From contig JANNYF010000088.1 in NCBI GenBank assembly GCA_031409955.1, positions 82,927-146,926 on the forward strand: 64,000 nt of DNA. Reading direction: 5' to 3'. The notes below the pieces were generated by a model. It was not told the DNA's origin. It saw only the letters and a program-made list of their open reading frames with translations, and searched no databases. Position 1 is the stretch's first letter. Each line of letters opens with the position of its first letter. The DNA is from Blastocatellia bacterium (GTDB taxonomy: Bacteria; Acidobacteriota; Blastocatellia; RBC074). Position numbers and translations under genes: made by a program. Below are positions 2,897-63,660 of the stretch, piece by piece.

Positions 2897-3286
2897 GTGA
2901 TGTCAGAGATGACCGATAAATGTGCGCATCCGTCGTGTCATTGCCCAGCGCGAATGGATACCGAATATTGCAGCGAGTCCTGTGAACTGGCAAAAGATGA
3001 GGATGAACAGAACCTCCATAAAAAGGCCTCCGCTGAGTGGAAAAGCATTTTGCGTGCCGAGCGGAAAAGCCTGTGTTTACTGGCTGCGATGAAGGTATGC
3101 TACGGAAAACTTCACGTTGGTTGCGAGCAATTTCCCAGCTTGCGTTTCGGGTTTTGGGTTTTGGGGATCAGACTCAGTTCATCCAAATTTGCGGCTCCGC
3201 CGCCTGATGTGCGGGAGGTCTGTGACCTCCCGGCAGACTTGCGCTCTCTTCTCTTCGGGGCTACGCCCCTACCTGCTGGGGCATAG
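2897..3286 (+). CDS. Small Cys/His-rich ORF; the N-terminus resembles the bacterial metallothionein (SmtA/BmtA) motif. The true 3' end is uncertain
   Basis: MSEMTDKCAHPSCHCPARMDTEYCSESCELA fits KCAxxxCxC...YCSExC. The ORF has no stop before 3286, yet it runs through a hairpin-rich, protein-unlike region (3100-3350). Confidence 0.3.
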   Translation: MMSEMTDKCAHPSCHCPARMDTEYCSESCELAKDEDEQNLHKKASAEWKSILRAERKSLCLLAAMKVCYGKLHVGCEQFPSLRFGFWVLGIRLSSSKFAAPPPDVREVCDLPADLRSLLFGATPLPAGA

Positions 3287-3381
3287 CCCCAAAAAGAAAA
3301 AGAGCAATCTCCCGGAAAGGCGCAGCCTTTCCGCACATCAGGCGGCAAAGCCGCAGGAAATAAACAAAATTTGGAGCTACT

Positions 3382-3484
3382 GAGACTGCCGAGACTGCCG
3401 ACCACCGACCACCGACTACCGACCACCGATTTCCCGCTGTCGCATCTTCATCGCGCCCCACGCCACCGCGACCACCGACCACGA
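3382..3484. repeat. Tandem short repeats: GAGACTGCC x2 followed by CCACCGA-type heptamers x4, plus a second CCACCGACCAC stretch
   Basis: gagactgccgagactgccgaccaccgaccaccgactaccgaccaccga ... ccaccgcgaccaccgaccacga. Confidence 0.6.
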
Positions 3485-3597: not shown

Positions 3598-5466
3598 TCA
3601 TCGTGTAAAATTCAGTGGCGGTTTCATTCCTGCACCCAGATAAAAGCTGGTGTGCGGCGGTTGATTATATGCGACGTTTTGCCACGCGATGCTCAGGCGA
3701 TATTGCGGATCGTGCATCAAGGTAGAAAGCCGATATTTCGTCGGGATCGTGGTGGTGTAAATCCGCAGCTCTTTATTATCCGTCGTGCGCCAGATGACTT
3801 CTTCGCGCCAATCACCGAATAAATCCGCGCTCAAAGTTGGCGTCGCTTTCGAGCCGTTGTTTGCGGTGCAGCCTTCAGCGGTCAGGATCGTATCAAGCTT
3901 GCCGTTTTGCCAGTCCCATTTGGCAATCACGTTGCGATCCAGCAATTCGCGCAGCAAATCGCCGTCCCACCAGATCGCAAAATTCATCGAACGCGGAGCT
4001 GCACCAAGGCGCTCGCCTTTGGCATTCTTCAGCCCTTCCGCCCCACCCCACATTTCTGCGCCCGGATGCCGTGGATCAATGTCCGCTGCCACGCCACGCC
4101 CGACGTCTTTGTTGGGATCACTCGTCCACAAAATCGTTCCTGTTTTGGCGTCATACAGCGCGGCGCCGGGGCCTTGCGTGTTCTCTTCGATTTCGTGAAT
4201 GCCATAGACCTCCAGGCCGGGACGCGTCGGGTCAAGGTCGCTGACGTGCAACGCATCGCCGTGCCGCAGTCCGGTGGAATACAAACCCTTGCCGTTATCA
4301 TCCACGCACATCGAACCGTAAATGATTTCATCTTTGCCATCGCCATCCACATCGGCGACCGAAAGATTGTGATTGCCCTGTCCCGAAAACGCTGCCAGGC
4401 CCGGCTGCGAGGAATCAAAGACCCAGCGCGAAGTCAGCTTGCCGTTGCGCCAATCCCACGCCGCCAACACCGTTCTGCCGTAATAACCGCGACACATTAC
4501 GACGCTTGGTCGGCGACCATCAAGATAGGCAACGCCAGCCAGAAAGCGGTCGGCGCGGTTGCCATTGTTATCGTTGCCGCCGTTGCCCCCGATGCCGCCC
4601 CATCCGCTTAAATCGCCGCGTGACGGAATGTAATCCACCGTCGCCAACGCCGCGCCTGTCCGTCCGTCAAAGATCGTGAAGTATTCCGGCCCGGTCAGAA
4701 CTTTTCCGAGCGTCGCTGCCTCTTTGCTCACCCAATCGGCTTTGGCATCGCCAATGATTTTGCCTTTGCCGTCCGTTGTGCCGTCCGCCGTTTTGCACGC
4801 GAGTTCCGCACGTCCATCGCCGTCCAGGTCATACACCATGAACTGGGTGTAGTGCGCGCCTTCACGAATATTTTTGCCGAGGTTGATGGTCCAGAGCAAT
4901 GTGCCATCGAGCTTGTACGCCTGAAAAATGGGGGGATCGGTCAATCCATTTTGCGAATTATCGCGCCCTCGCCCCGTTTGATGCAGCACGATTTCATATT
5001 CGCCGTCGCCATCCAAATCGCCCACTGACGCATCGTTGGGCGTGTATCCCGGCGGCGTTTGCAGCGGAAGCGAAAGGTATGGCTGCGCGTTGGCTGAGAG
5101 TGAAAAAGATTGGCTGGCTGCCTGTTCGCGGTTTTTCAGTAGCGGGCGTACGAAATACGCATTCGCGCTTGTCAGGTCAGCTTTGGCATCAATGAAACTC
5201 GTCACATCCGTGATCGGCTTGTCATTGAGCTTTGTCGCTTTGCCACCATTGGTCGTGCGATACAAATTGAAAGCGATGTCGGCGGAATCTGTACCGAGCA
5301 AGCGCCAACCGACATAGACTTTGCCTGCACCTTGATTGATCGCCACGACACCGCGCCCAAGCCGCTCCATTTGCCGTTGCGCAAACGCTACATTGCACAA
5401 AAAACAGCAGGTGATGAGTAATCCCAATCCGTGTTCCAAGAGGTTTTTGTGAGTTGATCGAACCAT
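3598..5466 (-). CDS. Rhamnogalacturonan lyase, polysaccharide lyase family 11 (YesW/YesX-like), secreted
   Basis: N-terminal signal peptide. Repeated Ca-binding beta-propeller motifs (VGDLDGDGEYEIV, VYDLDGDGRAELA, VADVDGDGKDEII) typical of PL11. Length 622 aa. Confidence 0.8.
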   Translation of the reverse strand: MVRSTHKNLLEHGLGLLITCCFLCNVAFAQRQMERLGRGVVAINQGAGKVYVGWRLLGTDSADIAFNLYRTTNGGKATKLNDKPITDVTSFIDAKADLTSANAYFVRPLLKNREQAASQSFSLSANAQPYLSLPLQTPPGYTPNDASVGDLDGDGEYEIVLHQTGRGRDNSQNGLTDPPIFQAYKLDGTLLWTINLGKNIREGAHYTQFMVYDLDGDGRAELACKTADGTTDGKGKIIGDAKADWVSKEAATLGKVLTGPEYFTIFDGRTGAALATVDYIPSRGDLSGWGGIGGNGGNDNNGNRADRFLAGVAYLDGRRPSVVMCRGYYGRTVLAAWDWRNGKLTSRWVFDSSQPGLAAFSGQGNHNLSVADVDGDGKDEIIYGSMCVDDNGKGLYSTGLRHGDALHVSDLDPTRPGLEVYGIHEIEENTQGPGAALYDAKTGTILWTSDPNKDVGRGVAADIDPRHPGAEMWGGAEGLKNAKGERLGAAPRSMNFAIWWDGDLLRELLDRNVIAKWDWQNGKLDTILTAEGCTANNGSKATPTLSADLFGDWREEVIWRTTDNKELRIYTTTIPTKYRLSTLMHDPQYRLSIAWQNVAYNQPPHTSFYLGAGMKPPLNFTR

Positions 5467-5484
5467 AAAAATTCCTGCCTGTGA

Positions 5485-6324
5485 TTATTTGGCAACGCGC
5501 AATGGCGCGGCTTTGATGGATTCTGCCTGCGGAGAAAAGAACGCGCTGAGCCGATTAGGTTGCAATGCCTTCAAGCCCGCGATGACGGCTGCCGCGTTGA
5601 GTTCCGCGCCTTCCCGACTGGTATGCGTATGTTCGTCGGCGAACAGGGCCTCGACTTTTTCTGCTCCCAGCGCTTCGTATTGCTGCGCGATGATTTCGTT
5701 CAGGTCAAGGAACGCGACTTTCGTTTCTTTCGCTATCGCCGCCGCCCACGTACCGTATTGATCGCGGGCGATTTTTCCTTCTTTCCAAATCTTGCGCGGC
5801 ACGGGCGAGCAAATGACAGGCGTCGCGCCTTTGGCTTTGGTGTCGGCCACGTACTTGCGCAAGTACCAGCCGTAGCTGTGAACGACTTCATGTTTTTTGG
5901 TGATGAGGTTGTCAATCTCTTCGCTTTCTTCGCCGATGCCCTTGATCGTGCCACGCGCACGCGACGTGTCATTGAGTGCGCCACCGTCGTTATGCCCGAA
6001 TTGAATCAAGACGAAATCGCCCGGTTTCATTGCCGCCAACACTTGTTCCCATAAGCCTTCGGTTTGATAAGTACGACTGCTGCGTCCGCCGCGCGCGCGA
6101 TTGAGTACCGTGATTTTCGCCGCATCGAAAAACGTCACGAGTGGTTCGCCCCAGCCCCATTGCTTATTCGCGCCATCGCCGCTCCCGTTTTTGACCGTTG
6201 AATCGCCCACCAGAAATATGGTTGGCAATGTCGCTGCGGGTTTTTGATTCGGTTGCGCGGTGAGGCCGCTGTAACTGAGAAGACAAAGGAAAAGCCAATA
6301 GATATTTCGTTGCTGAAATCGCAT
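5485..6324 (-). CDS. Rhamnogalacturonan acetylesterase (SGNH hydrolase, CE12)
   Basis: Signal peptide. CE12/SGNH blocks GDSTV, GWG and GHND. It lies adjacent to and co-oriented with the PL11 lyase. Confidence 0.8.
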   Translation of the reverse strand: MRFQQRNIYWLFLCLLSYSGLTAQPNQKPAATLPTIFLVGDSTVKNGSGDGANKQWGWGEPLVTFFDAAKITVLNRARGGRSSRTYQTEGLWEQVLAAMKPGDFVLIQFGHNDGGALNDTSRARGTIKGIGEESEEIDNLITKKHEVVHSYGWYLRKYVADTKAKGATPVICSPVPRKIWKEGKIARDQYGTWAAAIAKETKVAFLDLNEIIAQQYEALGAEKVEALFADEHTHTSREGAELNAAAVIAGLKALQPNRLSAFFSPQAESIKAAPLRVAK

Positions 6325-6417
6325 AGTTGTATTTGTCTCGTGGTGAATTTAGACTGCCGATTGTAAGGCATTACTGTAATTATTCAGCGTCTTTGCCGCA
6401 TTAGCGGCAGTTTGAAT

Positions 6418-6549
6418 TTAGCCGTGGATTTCAATCCACGGAAGTGGTTCGATGTTTCCGGCGTCGCGTTAGCGACGATTGAATTCAGGTGTCGCTGATG
6501 CGACACGGGAGCCTTATTTTGCGCACCGTGGATTGAAATCCACGGCTAA
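6418..6549. promoter_or_regulatory. Paired 20-bp palindrome CCGTGGATTTCAATCCACGG (two copies 84 nt apart) in the divergent promoter between the CE12/PL11 operon and gene 6600
   Basis: TTAGCCGTGGATTTCAATCCACGG at 6418-6441 and its exact reverse complement at 6526-6549. Extra small palindromes (CGTCGCGTTAGCGACG, GTGTCGCTGATGCGACAC) lie between them. Confidence 0.55.
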
Positions 6550-6599
6550 AGTCAGCCGCCGCGACGCGGCAAAGAGGCTGACCAGTTACTCAAACCTAC

Positions 6600-7577
6600 A
6601 TGAATACACACCGCATAAAACTCTGGTTGTTGTTGGTTGTCGTGATAGTCATCGGGAGCGCGACTGCTGCTATTCGTGGCGCAAATCAACTTCAACCCAA
6701 AGCCAAAGCACTCGCATTTTTGCAACGCGAAGTTCCCGTCTGGAAACAGCAAAACGGTTGCTTTTCGTGTCACAACAACGGCGATGCGGCGCGCGCTTTG
6801 TATGCCGCGATTCGCAAAGGCCATCGCGTGCCTGCCGAAGTTTTAGCCGAGACCAATGCGTGGGTCAGCGACCCAAACCGTTGGGAGCAAAACAAAGGTG
6901 ATCCAGGGTTTAGCGACCAGAAGTTGGCGAACTTACAATTCGCCGCCGCGCTGGTGGCGGCCATTGAGGCTGGGCAAATCAAAGATCAGGAACCGCTGCG
7001 CCAGGCCGCGCGAAAACTGATGAACGATCAAAGCGCGGATGGTTCGTGGCACATTGATGCGGCGGGTACAGTTGGCTCGCCTGCGACCTGGGGGACGCCG
7101 TTGGCGACGTGGATGGCGCGGCAAACGTTACGGCAATCCGATCTGCCCGAAGCCAAAGACGCTGTGCAAAAAGCCGAGCGCTGGTTGCTGCAAGCAAAGC
7201 CCAACAATGTATTGATCGCTGCCACATTGGTATTGGCTTTCGCGCGTGACTCCGGCGTCGCAGCGCGTCGCCAACACACGGAAAGTTTGTCATTGCTCCG
7301 TCGCGCACAAACACAAGATGGAGGGTGGGGGCCGTATGCGGATGCGCCACCCGAATGCTTTGATACGGCGCTGGTGCTGCTCGCTTTGGAAACTGTCCGC
7401 GCACAAACAGGAATTGCTGCAATGATTCAGCGCGGTCGCGTCTTCCTGATCGCGCAGCAAAACACCGATGGAAGCTGGCCTGCGACTACGCGGCCTTCGG
7501 GCGGCGACAGCTATGCACAAATGATGTCCACGACGGGCTGGGCGACGCTGGCGTTGTTGGAAACGGAAGGACGGTAG
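6600..7577 (+). CDS. Membrane-anchored protein with a CxxCH heme-c motif and prenyltransferase/squalene-cyclase-like (alpha/alpha toroid) repeats
   Basis: N-terminal hydrophobic anchor. CFSCH appears once. Repeats are QSADGSWH, QTQDGGWGPY and QNTDGSWP. Confidence 0.6.
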   Translation: MNTHRIKLWLLLVVVIVIGSATAAIRGANQLQPKAKALAFLQREVPVWKQQNGCFSCHNNGDAARALYAAIRKGHRVPAEVLAETNAWVSDPNRWEQNKGDPGFSDQKLANLQFAAALVAAIEAGQIKDQEPLRQAARKLMNDQSADGSWHIDAAGTVGSPATWGTPLATWMARQTLRQSDLPEAKDAVQKAERWLLQAKPNNVLIAATLVLAFARDSGVAARRQHTESLSLLRRAQTQDGGWGPYADAPPECFDTALVLLALETVRAQTGIAAMIQRGRVFLIAQQNTDGSWPATTRPSGGDSYAQMMSTTGWATLALLETEGR

Positions 7578-7622
7578 AGTCGGGGAGTCGGAGAGTCTCT
7601 GACTCCCTGGACTCCCCAGACT
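7576..7622. terminator. Imperfect hairpin built from GAGTC/GACTC repeat units between convergent genes
   Basis: agagtcggggagtcggagagtc-tct-gactccctggactccccagact. Confidence 0.5.
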
Positions 7623-7629
7623 TCTTCCC

Positions 7630-8129: not shown

Positions 8130-9311
8130 TCAGCGAATCTCAAAAGGTAATTTGACAGAGGACGTCTTGAGGTGTCGCTCTACGCCTGTAAATAAATCCA
8201 CTTCAAACGCCTTGCCAATATTGTTGCCTGCGAGGTCTTCCACGGTTGTCTGGATGACCAGATCATACGTGCCACGCGGCCACGCCAGGTTGGGTGTAAA
8301 GCTCCAACGTTGCTCATGGTCTTCCAGCTTCACTTGGCCTGGCACAATCTGTCCGGCTGCGGTTACAACGGTGATGAGCCGTGATGATAACGCATGATCC
8401 ATCGGTTCTGGAAATAGCAGGACGAGCGGTTCGCGCGTGCCGGAAGACAGCGCGCTTATTTGCCAGCGCTGGGGATCAGGCGGTTCGCGGTCGGGCGCGA
8501 CGACGCGGAATGATTTCTGAAATTCTACTTTGAGTGGTGCGCCATTGCCGTCTTTCCAGGCTTGGCGAATGACCAGCGTATAACTCTTTCCGGTTTCCAA
8601 GGACGGGCCGATTTCTTCCAGCGGCAACACGCCGCGCTTGATGCGACCGGGATCAATGAATACGGTCAAGCGCGTCAAGGTCGTGTCCCACAACTCCTCG
8701 TCAATTTCCAGAAACGGCAATTCGACTTGCTTGCCTTTGTCGTCGCGCAGTTGAATAAATTCGTAAATGCCACCGCGTTGCATCGGCGCAGAAAAGTGCA
8801 GATAAAACTTGAGCAGGTTTTCCGGCACGACCGCGCCGCTGGGATAGACAGCCGTGATGATTGTCGTCGGCGTGACGTCGCGCGGCGGCAACCGAAAGGT
8901 GCTGGTGATGGGCGCTGCGATCACGTTGCCAGGCAACTGCGTGGGGCGAAACTCGGCGCGATAGCCCAAGCCCGGCTCCATTGGAAACTGCGGCGCAAAG
9001 CGCAACACATTGCCTTGCACACGATACGCGCCGAGCATCGCTACGTCAGCGGTTGCCGTGTACACGGCAAACAATCGTTGCCATTGCGACGGCTGCCAGC
9101 GAACGCGTTGCAGTTGTTGCAGCGTCGCGGCATTCAAGCCGATGATTTCGACCGCGATTTTATGGGTGTTGGTTGCATCAGGCGTCCAGCGAATGGTTTG
9201 CGCTTGCGCGGTCACAACGCAAAGGAACAAAGCGACAAAGCGGCAAAGAAACCGCTGATGGCTCTTTGTCGCTTTGTCGCTTTGTTCCTTTGCGTTGAAG
9301 ATTCGCGTCAT
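8130..9311 (-). CDS. Exported hypothetical protein
   Basis: 393-aa ORF with a signal-like segment FVALFLCVVTAQA. Its start codon and first ~25 codons lie inside a tandem-repeat palindrome (9218-9294). It starts 6 nt downstream of the upstream gene's stop (stop at 9317-9319). Confidence 0.55.
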   Translation of the reverse strand: MTRIFNAKEQSDKATKSHQRFLCRFVALFLCVVTAQAQTIRWTPDATNTHKIAVEIIGLNAATLQQLQRVRWQPSQWQRLFAVYTATADVAMLGAYRVQGNVLRFAPQFPMEPGLGYRAEFRPTQLPGNVIAAPITSTFRLPPRDVTPTTIITAVYPSGAVVPENLLKFYLHFSAPMQRGGIYEFIQLRDDKGKQVELPFLEIDEELWDTTLTRLTVFIDPGRIKRGVLPLEEIGPSLETGKSYTLVIRQAWKDGNGAPLKVEFQKSFRVVAPDREPPDPQRWQISALSSGTREPLVLLFPEPMDHALSSRLITVVTAAGQIVPGQVKLEDHEQRWSFTPNLAWPRGTYDLVIQTTVEDLAGNNIGKAFEVDLFTGVERHLKTSSVKLPFEIR

Positions 9312-9316
9312 CGTTA

Positions 9317-10429
9317 TTACGGCAGCGGCAGCGTTTCGAGGTTCAGCGTGCCACCTTCTGCGCGGCGCACCACGATGGCATGTTTGCTATCGAAACGATC
9401 CAATTGATCTACGCCTGTCCACGCTTCAATGGTCTCGTAGGTCATGCCCTTTTTATCCGGCACGGGCGCGAGGATGCTTTCTGCGCCGGCAATGTTTTCG
9501 GTCGTGATCTTCATCACACCGCGACTGCTATTGGCCATCAGCAAATAATGCTTGCCGTCGCGTTGATAGACGATCATATCCAGCGGACGATTGCGGTTGC
9601 CGAGTTCCGCGATGGTTTTGCCTTGCAGCTTCGCGCCGGGTTTCAAATCGCTGATCGGGATTTGTACGAGCGGCGTGCAGGTGTACGCGGTCAACAGATG
9701 ATCGGTAGTGCCAATCTTGAAGGACGTGAAGGTGCGAACCGGCGCGCGCGTTTCAAAGCGTCCGTGTGCGCCGTGATAAATCTCCACGGTGGTTCCGCTC
9801 GCCACTGCTTTGAACGGGAAAGGAACGGCACGCAGGGTGGAAGCAAACTCTTCATTTGCCAGCCCTGCGACGAACAAACGACCATCTACAAACGCGATGT
9901 CGGTGATGGACTCAAGGCGCGGGTTGCTGGCACGATTGCCTTCGCCCATTATTTTGTCAGCGGGCGCATCGGGCAAATCCGCGCGGGAATACTTCACATT
10001 GTCGAGGGCGACGACCTCGATCTTACCGTCTGTTTTGACGCGCACCAACACGGGCATCGCATCGGCTCCGCGTCCGCGCGACACGGACAGATAGGCATTA
10101 CGCGAGACTGGATTGATCGCCAAATCCACAATCAAAATTTGATCTGCTGTGGTGCCGAGCAGCGCCGCAATTTTTTGATTGATGCCTTCGACTTTGAGCA
10201 GTGGCGTGCCTGCCGCAGCTTTCACATCACCTGTTGCGATGGCTATGATAGCGGCGGCCTTTGTGTCAGCCACAAACAGAACGCCGTCTGGGCCAAAGGC
10301 TAAGGGGCCGACTGATTTCAGTTCGAGCTTGCCTTCTGCCATACCTGCCGTCCACCGGGGGGCAGCCATTGCCGTTTGCAACACGACGCAACAAACCACG
10401 AGTGTCAGAAAAAGAGAAAACCGTTTCAT
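9317..10429 (-). CDS. Exported hypothetical protein (beta-rich)
   Basis: Signal peptide MKRFSLFLTLVVCCVVLQTAMA. No recognisable catalytic motif. First gene downstream of the receptor terminator hairpin. Confidence 0.6.
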   Translation of the reverse strand: MKRFSLFLTLVVCCVVLQTAMAAPRWTAGMAEGKLELKSVGPLAFGPDGVLFVADTKAAAIIAIATGDVKAAAGTPLLKVEGINQKIAALLGTTADQILIVDLAINPVSRNAYLSVSRGRGADAMPVLVRVKTDGKIEVVALDNVKYSRADLPDAPADKIMGEGNRASNPRLESITDIAFVDGRLFVAGLANEEFASTLRAVPFPFKAVASGTTVEIYHGAHGRFETRAPVRTFTSFKIGTTDHLLTAYTCTPLVQIPISDLKPGAKLQGKTIAELGNRNRPLDMIVYQRDGKHYLLMANSSRGVMKITTENIAGAESILAPVPDKKGMTYETIEAWTGVDQLDRFDSKHAIVVRRAEGGTLNLETLPLP

Positions 10430-10530
10430 TCAAAAACTCCTTTGGTTGAGAACTTAAAACTGGAAATGGGAATGCACGCCAGCCAAGACGCGGGGGCAGG
10501 GCAATTGGTTTCGAGGTTGATAAAAAAGTC

Positions 10531-10573
10531 GAGCCGGCTGGATGGCAACTGCGCGCTGCCATCCAGCCGGCTC
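10531..10573. terminator. Perfect 17-bp stem hairpin downstream of the receptor gene 10588-14028
   Basis: gagccggctggatggca-actgcgcgc-tgccatccagccggctc. Confidence 0.6.
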
Positions 10574-10587
10574 AATCATCTGGTCAG

Positions 10588-14302: not shown

Positions 14303-14432
14303 AGGGTAGCGCAAACTGTTAGTTTGCGATGTTCGCCATATAACGCCTGCAAAGGAACCATGCCGTCGAACACCTTATTTCCATTAGGGTATCTGTCATT
14401 CAACCACGCAAACTGACAGTTTGCGCTACTCT
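14303..14432. promoter_or_regulatory. Paired near-palindromes CGCAAACTGTTAGTTTGCG (14310-14328) and CGCAAACTGACAGTTTGCG (14407-14425), ~130 nt upstream of the receptor start at 14166
   Basis: Each site is an internal 19-bp palindrome. The flanks AGAGGGTAGCG/CGCTACTCT are themselves inverted. Same core as the 16645-16751 pair. Confidence 0.6.
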
Positions 14433-16644: not shown

Positions 16645-16751
16645 CCGCTGTTGCGCGAACTGTTAGTTTGCGTCTTCGCTGAGGTAGGCTTGAGTTGCCA
16701 GCAAAGTGTTTGGTCACGACCGACGCAAACTAACAGTTCGCGCAACAGCGG
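16645..16751. promoter_or_regulatory. Perfect 30-bp inverted repeat (16645-16674 / 16722-16751), each arm carrying the near-palindrome CGCGAACTGTTAGTTTGCG. It lies upstream of the GH88-SDR operon
   Basis: CCGCTGTTGCGCGAACTGTTAGTTTGCGTC and its exact reverse complement, separated by 47 nt. Located 125-230 nt upstream of the GH88 start (16520). Confidence 0.6.
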
Positions 16752-19501: not shown

Positions 19502-21004
19502 CTACTTCATATCCGTATTACTGACGAAGGCAATCTTCTTGCTGTCCGGTGACCATGACGGAACATTGATTGTGCCTTGCCCGCCGTAGAGATACGCAAT
19601 TACCTTGGGCGCACCGCCACTAATCGGCAGCAAGCGCAAATACACATGTTTGTAAAACGGATGATCGCCCGGCGCGATGTCTTTCGGGAACGAGATGATC
19701 ATGATCCATTTGCCATCGGGCGAGATGTGCGGAAACCAGTTGTTGAATTCGTCGTTGGTGATCTGCGTTTGCTCGCTGCCATCGGGCTTCATGCGCCAGA
19801 TTTGCATCAGGCCGGTGCGAAACGAATTGAAGTAAATGTATTTGCCGTCGGGCGTGTATTCCGGCCCATCGTCTACGCCTTTCGTCGTCGTCAATTGCAC
19901 TTCGTCGCCGCCTTGGGCCGGGATTTTGAAGATGTCGAATTCGTCATTGCGGCGGCCTGCAAAGACCAGAAACTTTTTGTCCGGCGACCAGCCGTGCAAG
20001 TACGACGGGCCTTTCTTTGTTACCTTTGTCGGCTTACCACCTTTGCTCGGCAGCGTGTAAATCATCGAGACATTGCCGTCTTCTGCGCTCGAACTGCTGA
20101 TGCCAAGCAGCTTGCCATCGAAGGTCAGAACGTGATCGTTGTTGTTGCGCTTCACGTCGCCCGTATCAAATACCGCTGGCGTGTTCGTCGCCAAATCAAA
20201 GCGATAGAGCAAACCATTGTGGTTGTAGATCAGCGCCTTGCCATCCCGCGTCCAGTTGGGTGCTTGCAGTGAATCTTTGACGCGATACAGCACCTTGCGC
20301 GTGTTCGTGGCCAAATCCATGACTTCGAGATTGCTGCCGATGTATTCGCGGTACGGCACAAAGTTTTCTCTGACCGGGATCGTGATTTCGACATCCCGAA
20401 ACACAGCGGTTTCGACAACGGTGTTGTTGTGCGAGCAGACATACAAACCCGCATACACGTCATCGCCGAGCGGAATATCGGTGACTTCCTTGGTGATGAA
20501 CGCCTCGCCGAATTTGGCGACGGACATGATGTACTTGTTGCCGCGCCGTTCGAGTTGGACGACATCGAAGTTTTTTTCAGTGAACGCGACCTGTTCCGTG
20601 ACCGCACCTTTCGTGCGCCGAAACTGCAACGAAGTCAGGCCATCGCCGTGCAAACTGGCGTTGACGTGCGGCCCATCAGTATCCAGATTCGGGCGAATGA
20701 TCCAACCGATTTTGCGATGCGGATCAACGCCTTTGCCGATGAATTCCGTGCGGGCACGCAGAATGAAATTGCCCTTCATCCGCTTCCACGCGAAGTGAAA
20801 CTCATCTTTGGTCGCCCACATATTCGTGCCCGAAGCCTTGATCGTATAGGTTTGCTGCGTGGCGTCATATCCCACCGAACCAGCCGTAGCGACCGCGCCG
20901 ACATCTTGATGATGCTCAAATTGCCCGACGGGTGTTTGGGCATAAGTGAAAGTGGAGAAAGTTGCTGCGAGCAGCATAGAAGTTGCGAAGGATTTTAGAA
21001 ACAT
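19502..21004 (-). CDS. Secreted TolB-like WD40/PD40 beta-propeller protein
   Basis: Signal peptide MFLKSFATSMLLAATFSTFTYAQ. PD40 repeats are WSPDKKFLVF, YTPDGKYIYFNS, ISPDGKWIMI and WSPDSKKIAFVS. Confidence 0.7.
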   Translation of the reverse strand: MFLKSFATSMLLAATFSTFTYAQTPVGQFEHHQDVGAVATAGSVGYDATQQTYTIKASGTNMWATKDEFHFAWKRMKGNFILRARTEFIGKGVDPHRKIGWIIRPNLDTDGPHVNASLHGDGLTSLQFRRTKGAVTEQVAFTEKNFDVVQLERRGNKYIMSVAKFGEAFITKEVTDIPLGDDVYAGLYVCSHNNTVVETAVFRDVEITIPVRENFVPYREYIGSNLEVMDLATNTRKVLYRVKDSLQAPNWTRDGKALIYNHNGLLYRFDLATNTPAVFDTGDVKRNNNDHVLTFDGKLLGISSSSAEDGNVSMIYTLPSKGGKPTKVTKKGPSYLHGWSPDKKFLVFAGRRNDEFDIFKIPAQGGDEVQLTTTKGVDDGPEYTPDGKYIYFNSFRTGLMQIWRMKPDGSEQTQITNDEFNNWFPHISPDGKWIMIISFPKDIAPGDHPFYKHVYLRLLPISGGAPKVIAYLYGGQGTINVPSWSPDSKKIAFVSNTDMK

Positions 21005-21034
21005 AAGTTGATCCAATTTAGAGGATTGATTTAT

Positions 21035-21168
21035 CCACGAAGTCACAATCACGAAGATTTTTGACAGGATTGACAGGATTTTCAAGATTTAACTGAATCG
21101 CAAAACATCCTGTTCATCTTGTCAATCTTGTCTGATTCTTCTTCGTGCCTTTTCGTGTGCCTTCGTGG
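21035..21168. repeat. Nested hairpin whose arms are tandem short repeats: outer CACGAAG x2 / CTTCGTG x3, inner GACAGGATT x2 / AATCCTGTC-like
   Basis: ccacgaagtcacaatcacgaag...ttgacaggattgacaggatttt...aaaacatcctgttcatcttgtcaatcttgtc...cttcgtgccttttcgtgtgccttcgtgg. Confidence 0.6.
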
Positions 21169-21176
21169 ATGAGATG

Positions 21177-22421
21177 TTAATACTCAATCTCAGGCCGTCG
21201 CGCATCGTGCGGATCAGCCCAGCGATTGTTCGGCACAGTCGGCGTCCAGCCCGGTCGCAGCGGGTCTTGATCGTAGGGGTAGCCGCCTAGCCGTTTGTAG
21301 AGTTCGCTGTATTCGCCCAACTTCTCGCGGTCAAGTTTTACGCCCAAGCCCGGCGCAGTCGGCACAGCTATCGAACCGTCTTCATACTTCAATTTACCGC
21401 CCACAATGATGTCATCTACCACGTGGTGATAATGCGCGTCGGCAGCGAAGGAAAGATTCGGAATGACCGCGCCGAAATGCAGCATCGTTGCCAATTGAAT
21501 CCCAAGCTCACCCGATGAATGCACAGCGACACCAAGCTGAAACGTCTCGCAAATGCCCGCCGCTTTCACACACGAACGAATGCCGCCCCAGAACGTCGTA
21601 TCCAGCAAAATCACGTCTACCGCCGTGTTCAGAATATTCGCCGCCAGTTGCTCAAAATTGACTACGACGGTGTTCGTTGCCAGCGGCATTCGCACCTTCT
21701 CGCGCACGCGCCGCATGCCGTGCAAACCGAACACGGGGTCTTCCAAATAGTCGTTGCGAATGTCTTCGATTTGCTGCCCAAACCAGATGGCAGTTTCAGT
21801 TGACCAAGCACCATTCGGATCAAAGCGGAAGCGGTCGCCTTTCAGTGCTTCGGCTACGGCGCGGTAGCATTCCAATTCGTATTCCGGCGCAAACACGCCG
21901 CCCTTCAATTTGTGCGAGGTGAAGCCATATTTCGCTTTCAAATCTTTTGCGAGCGCGACCAATTGCTCCGCCGTGCGTGATTCGCCGCTGCCATCTTTCG
22001 GATTCGGGTAGCGAAAAAACAGGTACGATGCGAACGGTACGCGATCATTCAATCGTCCGCCCAGAATGTCGCACACCGGCACGCCCCACTTCTGCCCCAG
22101 AATATCGAGGCAAGCGAATTCGAGCGCGGCCAGCACCTGCGTGCGATTGTTGTACAGCGATGCCGTTGGGTTGGCGATCAGAAAGCGCATCTCTTCCAGC
22201 CGCGCCGGATCGTGTCCGACCAGATAGCTTTTCATCGCGCGAAACACCGCTTCCGCCGATTCGCCGCCGCCACCCATTTCGCCGAGGCCAGTAATGCCTT
22301 CATCGGTTTCGACTTCGACGATAGTGCGCACGAAACGTCCCCAATGACAGCCGTTCGCATGGCGCAGCGGCGCTTCCAACGGAACCGTGACAGTCGTAGC
22401 TTTGATGTCGGTAATTTTCAT
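21177..22421 (-). CDS. Enolase-superfamily sugar-acid dehydratase (mandelate racemase/muconate lactonizing family; glucarate/galactarate-dehydratase-like)
   Basis: MR/MLE N-terminal and TIM-barrel domains. Metal-ligand region FDPNGAWS; general fold pattern. 4-nt overlap with the downstream GNAT gene. Confidence 0.75.
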
Positions 22422-34550: not shown

Positions 34551-34619
34551 CGTATTCTCCCAGAAAAAAGGGGGAATCCGACAACTGCCGGATTCCCCTT
34601 GTGTGGTTGAAATTGAAGT

Positions 34620-50600: not shown

Positions 50601-50612
50601 GATCTGAGCAAT

Positions 50613-50703
50613 AGACCGCGGATGACGCGGATGTAGCGGATCAGCACGGATCAGGCAGAAAAAAATCCGCGCCCATCCGCGTCATCTGCGTCATCCGCGG
50701 TCT
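50613..50703. terminator. Long hairpin with arms made of tandem 9-mers (GGATGACGC-like), between the regulator and the flhA promoter
   Basis: agaccgcggatgacgcggatgtagcggatcagcacggatcagg...ccgcgcccatccgcgtcatctgcgtcatccgcggtct. The terminal 17 nt are exactly complementary. Confidence 0.6.
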
Positions 50704-50767
50704 ATTCCTCTACTCTTTCCGAAAACTAAATGACTCTGCCAATCTCTAATCTTCCTTCCCCAATTCG

Positions 50768-52931: not shown

Positions 52932-52994
52932 CACGTAGGAGCGAATTTATTCGCTTATGTTGACAAACTGAGCGAATGAATTCGCTCCTACGTG
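52932..52994. repeat. Inverted repeat with self-palindromic arms (GCGAATTTATTCGC / GCGAATGAATTCGC) between flhA and flhF
   Basis: CACGTAGGAGCGAATTTATTCGC ... GCGAATGAATTCGCTCCTACGTG. It is 21/23 complementary with a 17-nt loop. Confidence 0.6.
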
Positions 52995-61549: not shown

Positions 61550-61572
61550 GAGGCAACAAAATCGTGTTTCGT

Positions 61573-61673
61573 GACTCCTGATTCCCGATCTCTGATTCCT
61601 GACCACAAAATAGCAATTGGTTCAAGAATGCTTTTTGGTGAGCCGGAATCGGGAATCAGGAATCAGGAGTCAG
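61573..61673. repeat. Hairpin with arms of tandem heptamers (TGATTCC / GGAATCA) between flgA and flgH, inside the flagellar operon
   Basis: gactcctgattcccgatctctgattcctgacc ... ggaatcgggaatcaggaatcaggagtc. Confidence 0.6.
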
Positions 61674-63629: not shown

Positions 63630-63631
63630 TT

Positions 63632-63660
63632 GGTGGTTGGTGGTTGGTGGTTGGTGGTCG
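63632..63660. repeat. Heptamer microsatellite (GGTGGTT)x4 immediately after the flgI stop
   Basis: tggtggttggtggttggtggttggtggtcgg. This is the reverse-complement flavour (AACCACC) of the 3382 repeat. Confidence 0.6.

Follow-up and report, generated by a model that had tools for sequence, protein, structure and literature searches.

The intergenic gap of 172 nt between an enolase-superfamily dehydratase gene and a PD40/TolB-like beta-propeller gene (positions 21005-21176 of the window, the whole 64,000-nt stretch of DNA that was analysed) contains a composite nested palindrome of 138 nt (21033-21170). Judged by its repeats, this palindrome is a hairpin of a family built from ACAGGAT units, standing within the loop of a hairpin of a second family built from CACGAA units. 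On balance, the two are best explained as dispersed REP/REPIN- or MITE-like palindromes, one nested in the other, that constitute a candidate intercistronic RNA barrier and not a clean terminator.

The composite hairpin and its gene context

The genes upstream of the hairpin are, in order, GH67, GNAT and the dehydratase (ManD/glucarate-dehydratase-like, beginning MKITDIK; 21177-22421, minus strand, stop codon 21177-21179), and downstream is the PD40 gene (called as 19502-21004, minus strand, with its ATG at 21004 and a signal peptide MFLKSFATSMLLAATFSTFTYAQ), in agreement with the initial annotation, which had placed the hairpin between the end of a dehydratase/GH67 operon and the start of a TolB-like gene. 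The base of the stem is 6 nt past the dehydratase stop codon, and a leader of 28 nt (21005-21032, minus strand) separates the hairpin from the PD40 start codon. The supposed boundary of a lower-GC island at this position did not hold: only the gap itself is AT-rich, with a GC fraction of 0.38 compared with 0.53 for the PD40 gene, 0.47 for the next GNAT gene and 0.555 for the window on average, and the adjacency of the dehydratase and PD40 genes is syntenic in relatives. The two genes flanking the gap, both of sugar utilisation, encode proteins by which the window is assigned to the class Blastocatellia of the Acidobacteriota. The closest species-representative match to the PD40 protein has 88% amino-acid identity, and in a scan of metagenomes with this protein for close strains the best match had only 81%. 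The window also possesses genes for polysaccharide utilisation (PL11, GH88, CE15, GH67, GH95 and five large outer-membrane beta-barrel receptors) and a flagellar cluster extending from flhA to flgI. An Nramp transporter gene (473-1848) is split into two overlapping orfs, of which one (473-1492) covers the initial 250 positions of the Pfam model and the other (1453-1848) its final 100; this is a frameshift, a pseudogene or a sequencing error.

A single nested stem spans 21033-21170, where a nested hairpin with repeat arms had been reported at 21035-21168, and its sequence is as then described. The PD40-proximal outer arm (21033-21058, plus strand) reads ATC-CACGAAGT-CACAAT-CACGAAGA and belongs to the CACGAA family, with a decayed middle unit. 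The inner arm that follows (21061-21090, plus strand) consists of two copies of TTGACAGGA and a degenerate unit TTTTCAAGA with a period of nine (TRF, 2.2 copies with 100% match); seen as the unit GACAGGATT, the exact copies occupy 21063-21080 and the degenerate third unit is TTTCAAGAT. An apical loop region TAACTGAATCGCA (21091-21103), which varies between family members, leads to the complementary inner arm (21104-21134, plus strand; ATCCTGTTC, ATCTTGTCA and ATCTTGTCT), so that each inner arm is made of three 9-mers. The dehydratase-proximal outer arm (21139-21170, plus strand) contains three full CACGAA-family units, reading ATC-CACGAAGG-CACACGAAAAGG-CACGAAGAAG on the minus (sense) strand. 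Each outer arm thus has three degenerate CACGAAG-type units of irregular length, about 8-12 nt. The two CACGAAG copies noted on the left are exact (21036 and 21050), as are the two inner copies of GACAGGATT, and the CTTCGTG copies noted on the right are two exact ones (21141 and 21161) and a variant, TTTCGTG (21151).

When the arms were compared with 20,000 shuffles, none was as periodic as the inner arms at lag 9, the right outer arm was weakly periodic (p = 0.017 at lag 10), and the left outer arm, in which the middle unit has decayed, had no significant periodicity at lags 6-11; the repeat nature of the left outer arm rests on its homology to the CACGAA family. Folding of the 172-nt gap as RNA gave -56.9 kcal/mol on the sense (minus) strand (z = -5.8) and -64.6 kcal/mol on the plus (antisense) strand (z = -7.2), and folding as DNA gave -27.9 kcal/mol (z = -4.9), with none of 200 shuffles as good in any of the three cases; in the RNA folds the antisense strand of the stem is more stable than the sense strand. 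Rfam covariance models identified no relevant family at the target at gathering or relaxed thresholds, all matches being sub-threshold (microRNA-precursor families and one Streptococcus sRNA family).

Repeat families of the two hairpins and related palindromes

The inner hairpin has the pattern GACAGGATT.ACAGGATT...AATCCTGT.AATCCTGTC, and its family has the consensus GACAGGATT-(A/G)ACAGGAT...ATCCTGT-AATCCTGTC. The family comprises eight hairpins, that of the window and seven in fetched loci (designated L: L013, L020, L171, two in L229, L233 and L243). An alignment of six of the eight (A2: the window, L013, L171, L229:872, L233 and L243) keeps 17 basal stem pairs at the sequence level, and the degenerate third unit is common to the window and L243. 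In the flanks printed for the ACAGGAT copies, neither direct repeats nor target-site duplications can be seen. A scan of viral contigs with the ACAGGATT pattern recovered five true members of the family, the remaining matches being mostly unrelated, apparently coding-type repeats (only L232 was inspected). In a clade of Pyrinomonadaceae (L020 at 9884-9954, L105, L107 and L026), the divergent promoter region immediately ahead of the PD40 ortholog contains an ACAGGAT/ATCCTGT hairpin, its arms in the order opposite to those of the window. One rare unit, ACAGGAT, is found ahead of a PD40 gene in two lineages, that of the window and the L020 clade.

The outer hairpin has the pattern ATCCACGAA..CACACGAA, and its arms follow the consensus (A/G)ACGATC-CACGAAnn-CACACGAAnnnn-CACGAA of an oriented array, which is made of tandem direct repeats without an internal palindrome. 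The pattern CCACGAARNNACACGAA occurs 11 times in seven of the 161 loci (about 2 Mb) fetched at that stage, for a chance expectation of about 0.01 by our own estimate. Altogether, the CACGAA arrays number 32, distributed over 17 sequences, and many of them have the head ACGATC-CACGAA. Arrays are joined tail-to-tail in L003, L011, L014 and L082, which is also the form of the window element, and head-to-head five times in L111 and once in L132; an automated count gave four tail-to-tail and six head-to-head dimers and missed the window element because one of its arms has decayed. The printed flanks of the CACGAA copies, too, contain no visible target-site duplication. By comparison with these families, the arm repeats of the target, including the degenerate third unit, are a matter of family consensus and were not generated locally.

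The loop of a CACGAA hairpin that is intact in L011 is interrupted in L090 by a 1.4-kb IS3-family insertion (4500-5850), with an orfA encoding a helix-turn-helix, an orfB encoding a DDE integrase, inverted ends TGGAGCGAACCCC.../...GGGGTTCACCCCA and a 3-4-bp duplication. It was considered as a dedicated mobility partner of the hairpins and rejected: it is an ordinary insertion sequence, and its ends differ from those of the hairpin.

Four of the six sites at which the initial annotation had noted similar structures (7576, 9218, 50613 and 61573) are indeed repeat-armed hairpins. They are located at about 7574-7627 between convergent genes (a GAGTCGG/CCGACTC-like unit with a period of 8-9), at 9215-9297 (8-mer CAAAGCGA/CTTTGTCG, with 35-nt arms that are 97% complementary), at 50606-50710 upstream of flhA (9-mer GACGCGGAT/ATCCGCGTC, a unit family also found in L068) and at 61572-61673 between flgA and flgH (7-mer TGATTCC/GGAATCA). 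The other two sites, 3382 and 63632, turned out to be unpaired tandem arrays (3382-3429 and 63630-63658). The unpaired heptamer arrays of the window are TTGGTGG x4.1 (63630-63658, directly after the flgI stop codon), CCGACCA x4.6 (3398-3429) and TTGGGTT x3.7 (3140-3165); having no complementary partner, they indicate that tandem 7-mer expansion occurs alone in this genome. The arms at 7576-7622 and 61572-61673 are runs of GANTC sites (GAGTC/GACTC and GATTC/GAATC, respectively). The hairpin at 9215-9297 falls inside the longest orf (8130-9311, minus strand) of a Big_5-domain protein; read from the ATG at 9311, its first arm encodes the polar sequence NAKEQSDKATKS and its complementary arm the hydrophobic sequence FLCRFVALFLCVV, followed by TAQA|Q, in the manner of a signal peptide. 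Either this palindrome was co-opted as signal-peptide coding sequence or the true start codon is downstream.

A k-mer search of 1.4-2.1 Mb for tandem units facing reverse-complement tandem units found 35 such inverted pairs, compared with one or two in shuffled sequence. By a strict criterion, 100 kb of Acidobacteriota sequence contains 2-3 members of the class, and the same length elsewhere about 0.5-0.7. The recurrent unit types are CACGAA, CGCAGA(T/G), CGCGGAT, CACAGA(G/T), CGCAAAG and ACAGGAT, and looser analogues made from unrelated units are found in Vicinamibacteria and in Bacteroidota (Spirosoma, Mucilaginibacter, Fibrella and Chitinophagaceae); the architecture is also seen in a Calditrichia MAG. 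The proposal of an element family distinct from ordinary terminators was correct insofar as a recurrent class exists that is not made of classical terminators, but the class is not specific to this genome: the units of the five window hairpins are mutually unrelated, the two families of the target recur in other Blastocatellia MAGs, metagenome contigs and IMG/VR viral contigs, and the architecture extends to the other taxa just named. In L111 there are six repeat-armed hairpins within 11 kb, occupying almost every intergenic gap, and nesting is frequent in the class (for example, in L003 and L014).

The genes that flank 45 hairpins are co-directional in 27 cases, convergent in 13 and divergent in five, compared with a background of 58%, 19% and 23%, respectively; genes in fetched loci were called simply as longest orfs, and these counts carry some error, as when L049 and L059 were classed differently at one orthologous site. 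This split indicates that the hairpins favour the 3′ ends of genes without being confined there. Members of the ACAGGAT and CACGAA families are also found in divergent promoter regions (L020, L111:6343 and L243). Across the class, the sense strand folds better in 11 cases and the antisense strand in nine, and the two are equal on average.

Palindromes of other kinds were observed in the window and in related loci. Long inverted repeats at 14303-14432 and 16645-16751, with a small palindrome GCAAACTGTTAGTTTGC in each arm (the arms of the latter are 30 nt long and 100% complementary, and a similar motif is found in L008), resemble genuine REPIN-type dimers and would add another kind of intergenic palindrome to the window. 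The sole Rfam match in the window, Acido-Lenti-1 (6526-6571; 37.1 bits, the threshold being 37), forms an inverted pair with 6413-6441 in which both arms contain the palindrome CCGTGGAT-TGAA-ATCCACGG, and the divergent intergenic region that holds this pair (6376-6589) is heavily structured (z = -9.5); in the window, the Acido-Lenti-1 'sRNA' motif behaves like a REP-type repeat. A nearly loop-free 31-bp palindrome (52932-52994, 87% complementary), with arms that contain GAGCGAAT..ATTCGCT, is located between flhA and a flhF-like GTPase gene in a gap that folds at z = -11.4. Other hairpin families occupy similar sites in relatives (L001 at 9886-9963, L008, L114, L040, and L291 and L292 at 3249-3312), several of them containing AAGCTTTAGCTT-type or GCCAGCAGGATGCTGGC mini-palindromes, and in L290 (3690-3760) a direct array of four copies of a 14-mer is found upstream of a CE15 esterase gene.

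Variation at the locus among relatives

Contigs of relatives were recovered via close homologs of the dehydratase. In one of these, the 106-kb JGI contig L286, an orthologous composite hairpin lies between the same dehydratase and PD40 genes. The coding genes of L286 have 79-85% nucleotide identity to those of the window, and the four-fold degenerate sites of the dehydratase have 56%. When ungapped columns were compared, the outer arms were 86% and 96% identical and the 28-nt leader 84%, values that exceed the four-fold degenerate baseline (binomial p of about 1e-5 to 3e-3 for the three segments) and that are somewhat inflated by alignment optimisation, chiefly in the inner part, which was not relied upon. 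Conservation of the outer stem and leader above neutral expectation suggests either an RNA role or homogenisation against other copies of the family, and it could mean that a label such as 'selfish repeat' underrates a specific function.

The differences between the two orthologs are of whole units. The PD40-proximal outer arm of the window is 7 nt (one unit) shorter than that of L286, and the dehydratase-proximal inner arm has three units in the window versus four in L286; the inner element can be aligned between the two in both orientations. These indels confirm unit-scale slippage at the target, a process that, according to the initial annotation, would alter the length of the stem. Another instance is the pair L059 and L049, with four versus two units between flanks that are 96-97% identical, and one hairpin arm has an indel between L086 and L089, whose overall identity is 99.4%. 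At one orthologous site, L011 has a CACGAA hairpin and L014 a CGCAGAT hairpin. In the orthologous hairpins of L111 and L112, all units of both arms read CTCTGTG in one of the two and CTCTGCG in its counterpart, a sign either that units and arms have been homogenised or that a sister family has replaced the element.

The site itself turns over among relatives. The composite is kept in L286, but of other relatives at similar divergence, L001 carries a perfect 28-bp hairpin of unrelated sequence, L082 lacks any hairpin between the two genes, and in L004 an extra gene is inserted. The only contig of the same strain, L081 (from Logan, 100% identical), stops inside the target hairpin, and L002, with L286-like sequence, starts exactly at the base of the stem. 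Both breaks, in independent short-read contigs, look like failures of assembly at the palindrome.

Origin and possible function

The outer element is a tail-to-tail dimer of the oriented array ATC-CACGAAnn-CACACGAAnnnn-CACGAA, and the inner element, lodged in its loop, is a hairpin from the family of GACAGGATT-type 9-mers. Both families are dispersed over many unrelated intergenic sites of Blastocatellia, unlike a locus-specific regulatory sequence, and the tandem 7-10-nt units of the arms belong to the consensus architecture of each family, with whole units being gained and lost through replication slippage after insertion. We infer mobility solely from the dispersed distribution; no mobilising enzyme, pair of empty and filled sites or target-site signature was found in the DNA examined, and no autonomous element with matching ends was noticed in the fetched DNA.

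Among known systems, REP, BIME and REPIN sequences are likewise short multi-copy intergenic palindromes with several families per genome, located mostly 3′ of genes between co-directional or convergent orfs, assembled from oriented units joined head-to-head or tail-to-tail into larger hairpins, without target-site duplication and with fast turnover among relatives (PMC3733652). The REP monomer is a short imperfect palindrome, an 8-9-bp stem-loop tagged with GTAG or CGTC (Di Nocera et al. 2013, PMC3733652), whereas the monomer here consists of 7-10-nt units in a tandem array that is not palindromic and has no mini-palindrome tagged in this way; furthermore, there is no transposase, RAYT (IS200/IS605-like tyrosine transposase) included, among the 47 genes of the window, and the host phylum is Acidobacteriota, not Proteobacteria. 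MITEs resemble the target in being small, non-coding, dispersed, nestable and foldable when transcribed, with inverted ends, but target-site duplications cannot be seen here, and among the fetched DNA no related autonomous insertion sequence was noticed, the only insertion sequence seen being the unrelated IS3-family element of L090.

In architecture, the target comes closest to the intergenic GGGAATC heptamer arrays of Xanthomonas, which occur 70-75 times per genome as convergent pairs capable of forming stem-loops (Rehm et al. 2015, PMC4692102). Related strains differ in the length of these arrays but retain the type of pair (PMC4692102). The target likewise has at least two tandem units of 6-9 nt with a reverse-complement array nearby, unit number at one locus likewise varies (between the window and L286, and between L059 and L049), and the arm at 61645-61673 uses GGAATC(A/G). 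Xanthomonas has one dominant G-rich unit capable of forming G-quadruplexes (PMC4692102), whereas here there are many unrelated, mostly AT-rich 7-10-nt units, a conserved head motif and nesting. The unpaired arrays of the window (63630 and 3398) resemble the STRR of cyanobacteria and the TAACTGA repeats (MacGregor 2015, PMC4679880), which are intergenic tandem 7-mers, but those are mainly direct, without an inverted partner, and often associated with start codons (PMC4679880). Heptamer arrays in general, which are in excess among long simple-sequence repeats, are ascribed to polymerase slippage (Mrazek et al. 2007, as cited in PMC4679880).

If the hairpin were instead a dedicated factor-independent terminator of the GH67-GNAT-dehydratase operon with its stem length tuned by repeat slippage, one would expect a stable hairpin immediately after the stop codon, which is the case (the stem begins within 6 nt of it); moreover, the class is depleted in divergent gaps (five of 45 versus about 23% of the background), another strong hairpin occupies the syntenic site of L001, and the differences in unit number are real. 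Such a terminator is nevertheless improbable. There is no T-tract 3′ of the stem on either strand and a scan of 20500-21700 found no terminator-like site, the sense strand past the stem reading AUAAAUCAAUCC; the stem is several times longer than that of an intrinsic terminator, AT-rich and nested; and the 28 nt to the next ATG are too short for a separate promoter. The flagellar cluster contains sister hairpins, one ahead of flhA and another in the gap from flgA to flgH, L082 has none at this site, family copies occur in divergent regions, and folding has no strand asymmetry. The window does contain textbook hairpins with T6 tracts at 10530-10574 and 34571-34598 (both minus strand), with GC-rich stems of 17 and 12 bp, downstream of large outer-membrane receptor genes; from these it follows that the organism uses classical intrinsic termination.

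Two further explanations were weighed. Purely local mutation, by which a seed was expanded by slippage and reverse-complemented by replication template switching without any dispersal or family, would account for the different unit in each window hairpin and for the unpaired heptamer arrays right after stop codons (63630 and 3398). At an orthologous site with the full hairpin in L023 and L010, L015 is 'empty' except for one CTTTGCGAC unit, and template switching is a documented source of hairpins that can create and homogenise their arms (PMC8794818). Even so, local origin is still a shade less probable than a terminator, as both halves of the target match unrelated loci of other genomes over 17-33 nt, and these matches extend to the spacer bases and to the degenerate third unit, features that local growth would not produce independently. 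Least probable of all is an array of protein-binding sites, in which tandem ACAGGAT and CACGAA sites would be an operator or promoter of the PD40 gene: TTGACA is present within the units, the leader and outer arms are conserved above neutral, and three tandem ACAGGAT elements were found in independent lineages among the first 161 loci, two of them directly upstream of a PD40 ortholog, but the two lineages have the units arranged in opposite ways with respect to the gene (tail-to-tail versus head-to-head), other family copies adjoin unrelated genes, the element is missing from the closer relatives L001 and L082, and the families are too numerous and dense for the sites of a regulon, as the hairpins of L111 illustrate. 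Judged from the sequence, readings as DnaA boxes, parS, integron attC or CRISPR-like sequence were rejected, the motifs being a misfit and the context one of syntenic metabolic genes.

For the dispersed palindromes favoured here, the location of the target suggests a function at the RNA level. The element is probably transcribed within a polycistronic mRNA, since it begins 6 nt past one stop codon and ends 28 nt ahead of the next ATG. Its interrupted stem of about 55 bp could hinder RNA polymerase or 3′ exonucleases in part, or serve as a target of RNase III, and the expression of the PD40 gene would then be uncoupled from that of the dehydratase operon, as with enterobacterial REP/BIME elements; REP, BIME and REPIN hairpins in RNA are thought to stabilise or attenuate transcripts (PMC3733652). 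If transcribed, the hairpin may thus attenuate read-through, block exonucleases or attract RNase III. The copies in divergent promoter regions fit a purely 3′-end RNA role poorly, and since the antisense strand folds better at the target and the class has no strand bias, there is no G-U signature of transcript selection.

A broader proposal is more tentative, and we consider it rather unlikely, though less so than the alternatives weighed above: the repeat-armed hairpins would be an uncharacterised class of self-spreading palindromes of Acidobacteriota, with analogues in Bacteroidota and Calditrichota, spread by an unknown hairpin-recognising enzyme or by template switching, some copies of which, the target among them, would have been kept by selection as intercistronic RNA structures. 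The traits of such a class would be the oriented head (ACGATC-CACGAA), dimers of both types, the lack of target-site duplication, nesting in loops and the concerted evolution of units across arms.

Acidobacteriota are among the most abundant bacteria in soil, and to our knowledge almost nothing is known of their non-coding DNA. If palindromes of this kind fill many intergenic gaps, as they do in L111, they would shape operon polarity and mRNA stability and would create hotspots for indels and for insertion sequences. They would also fragment short-read assemblies, as with the contigs that end in or at the target hairpin (L081 and L002), and would mislead annotation, as with an extended orf at 19502-21085 and the spurious microRNA-like matches to Rfam.
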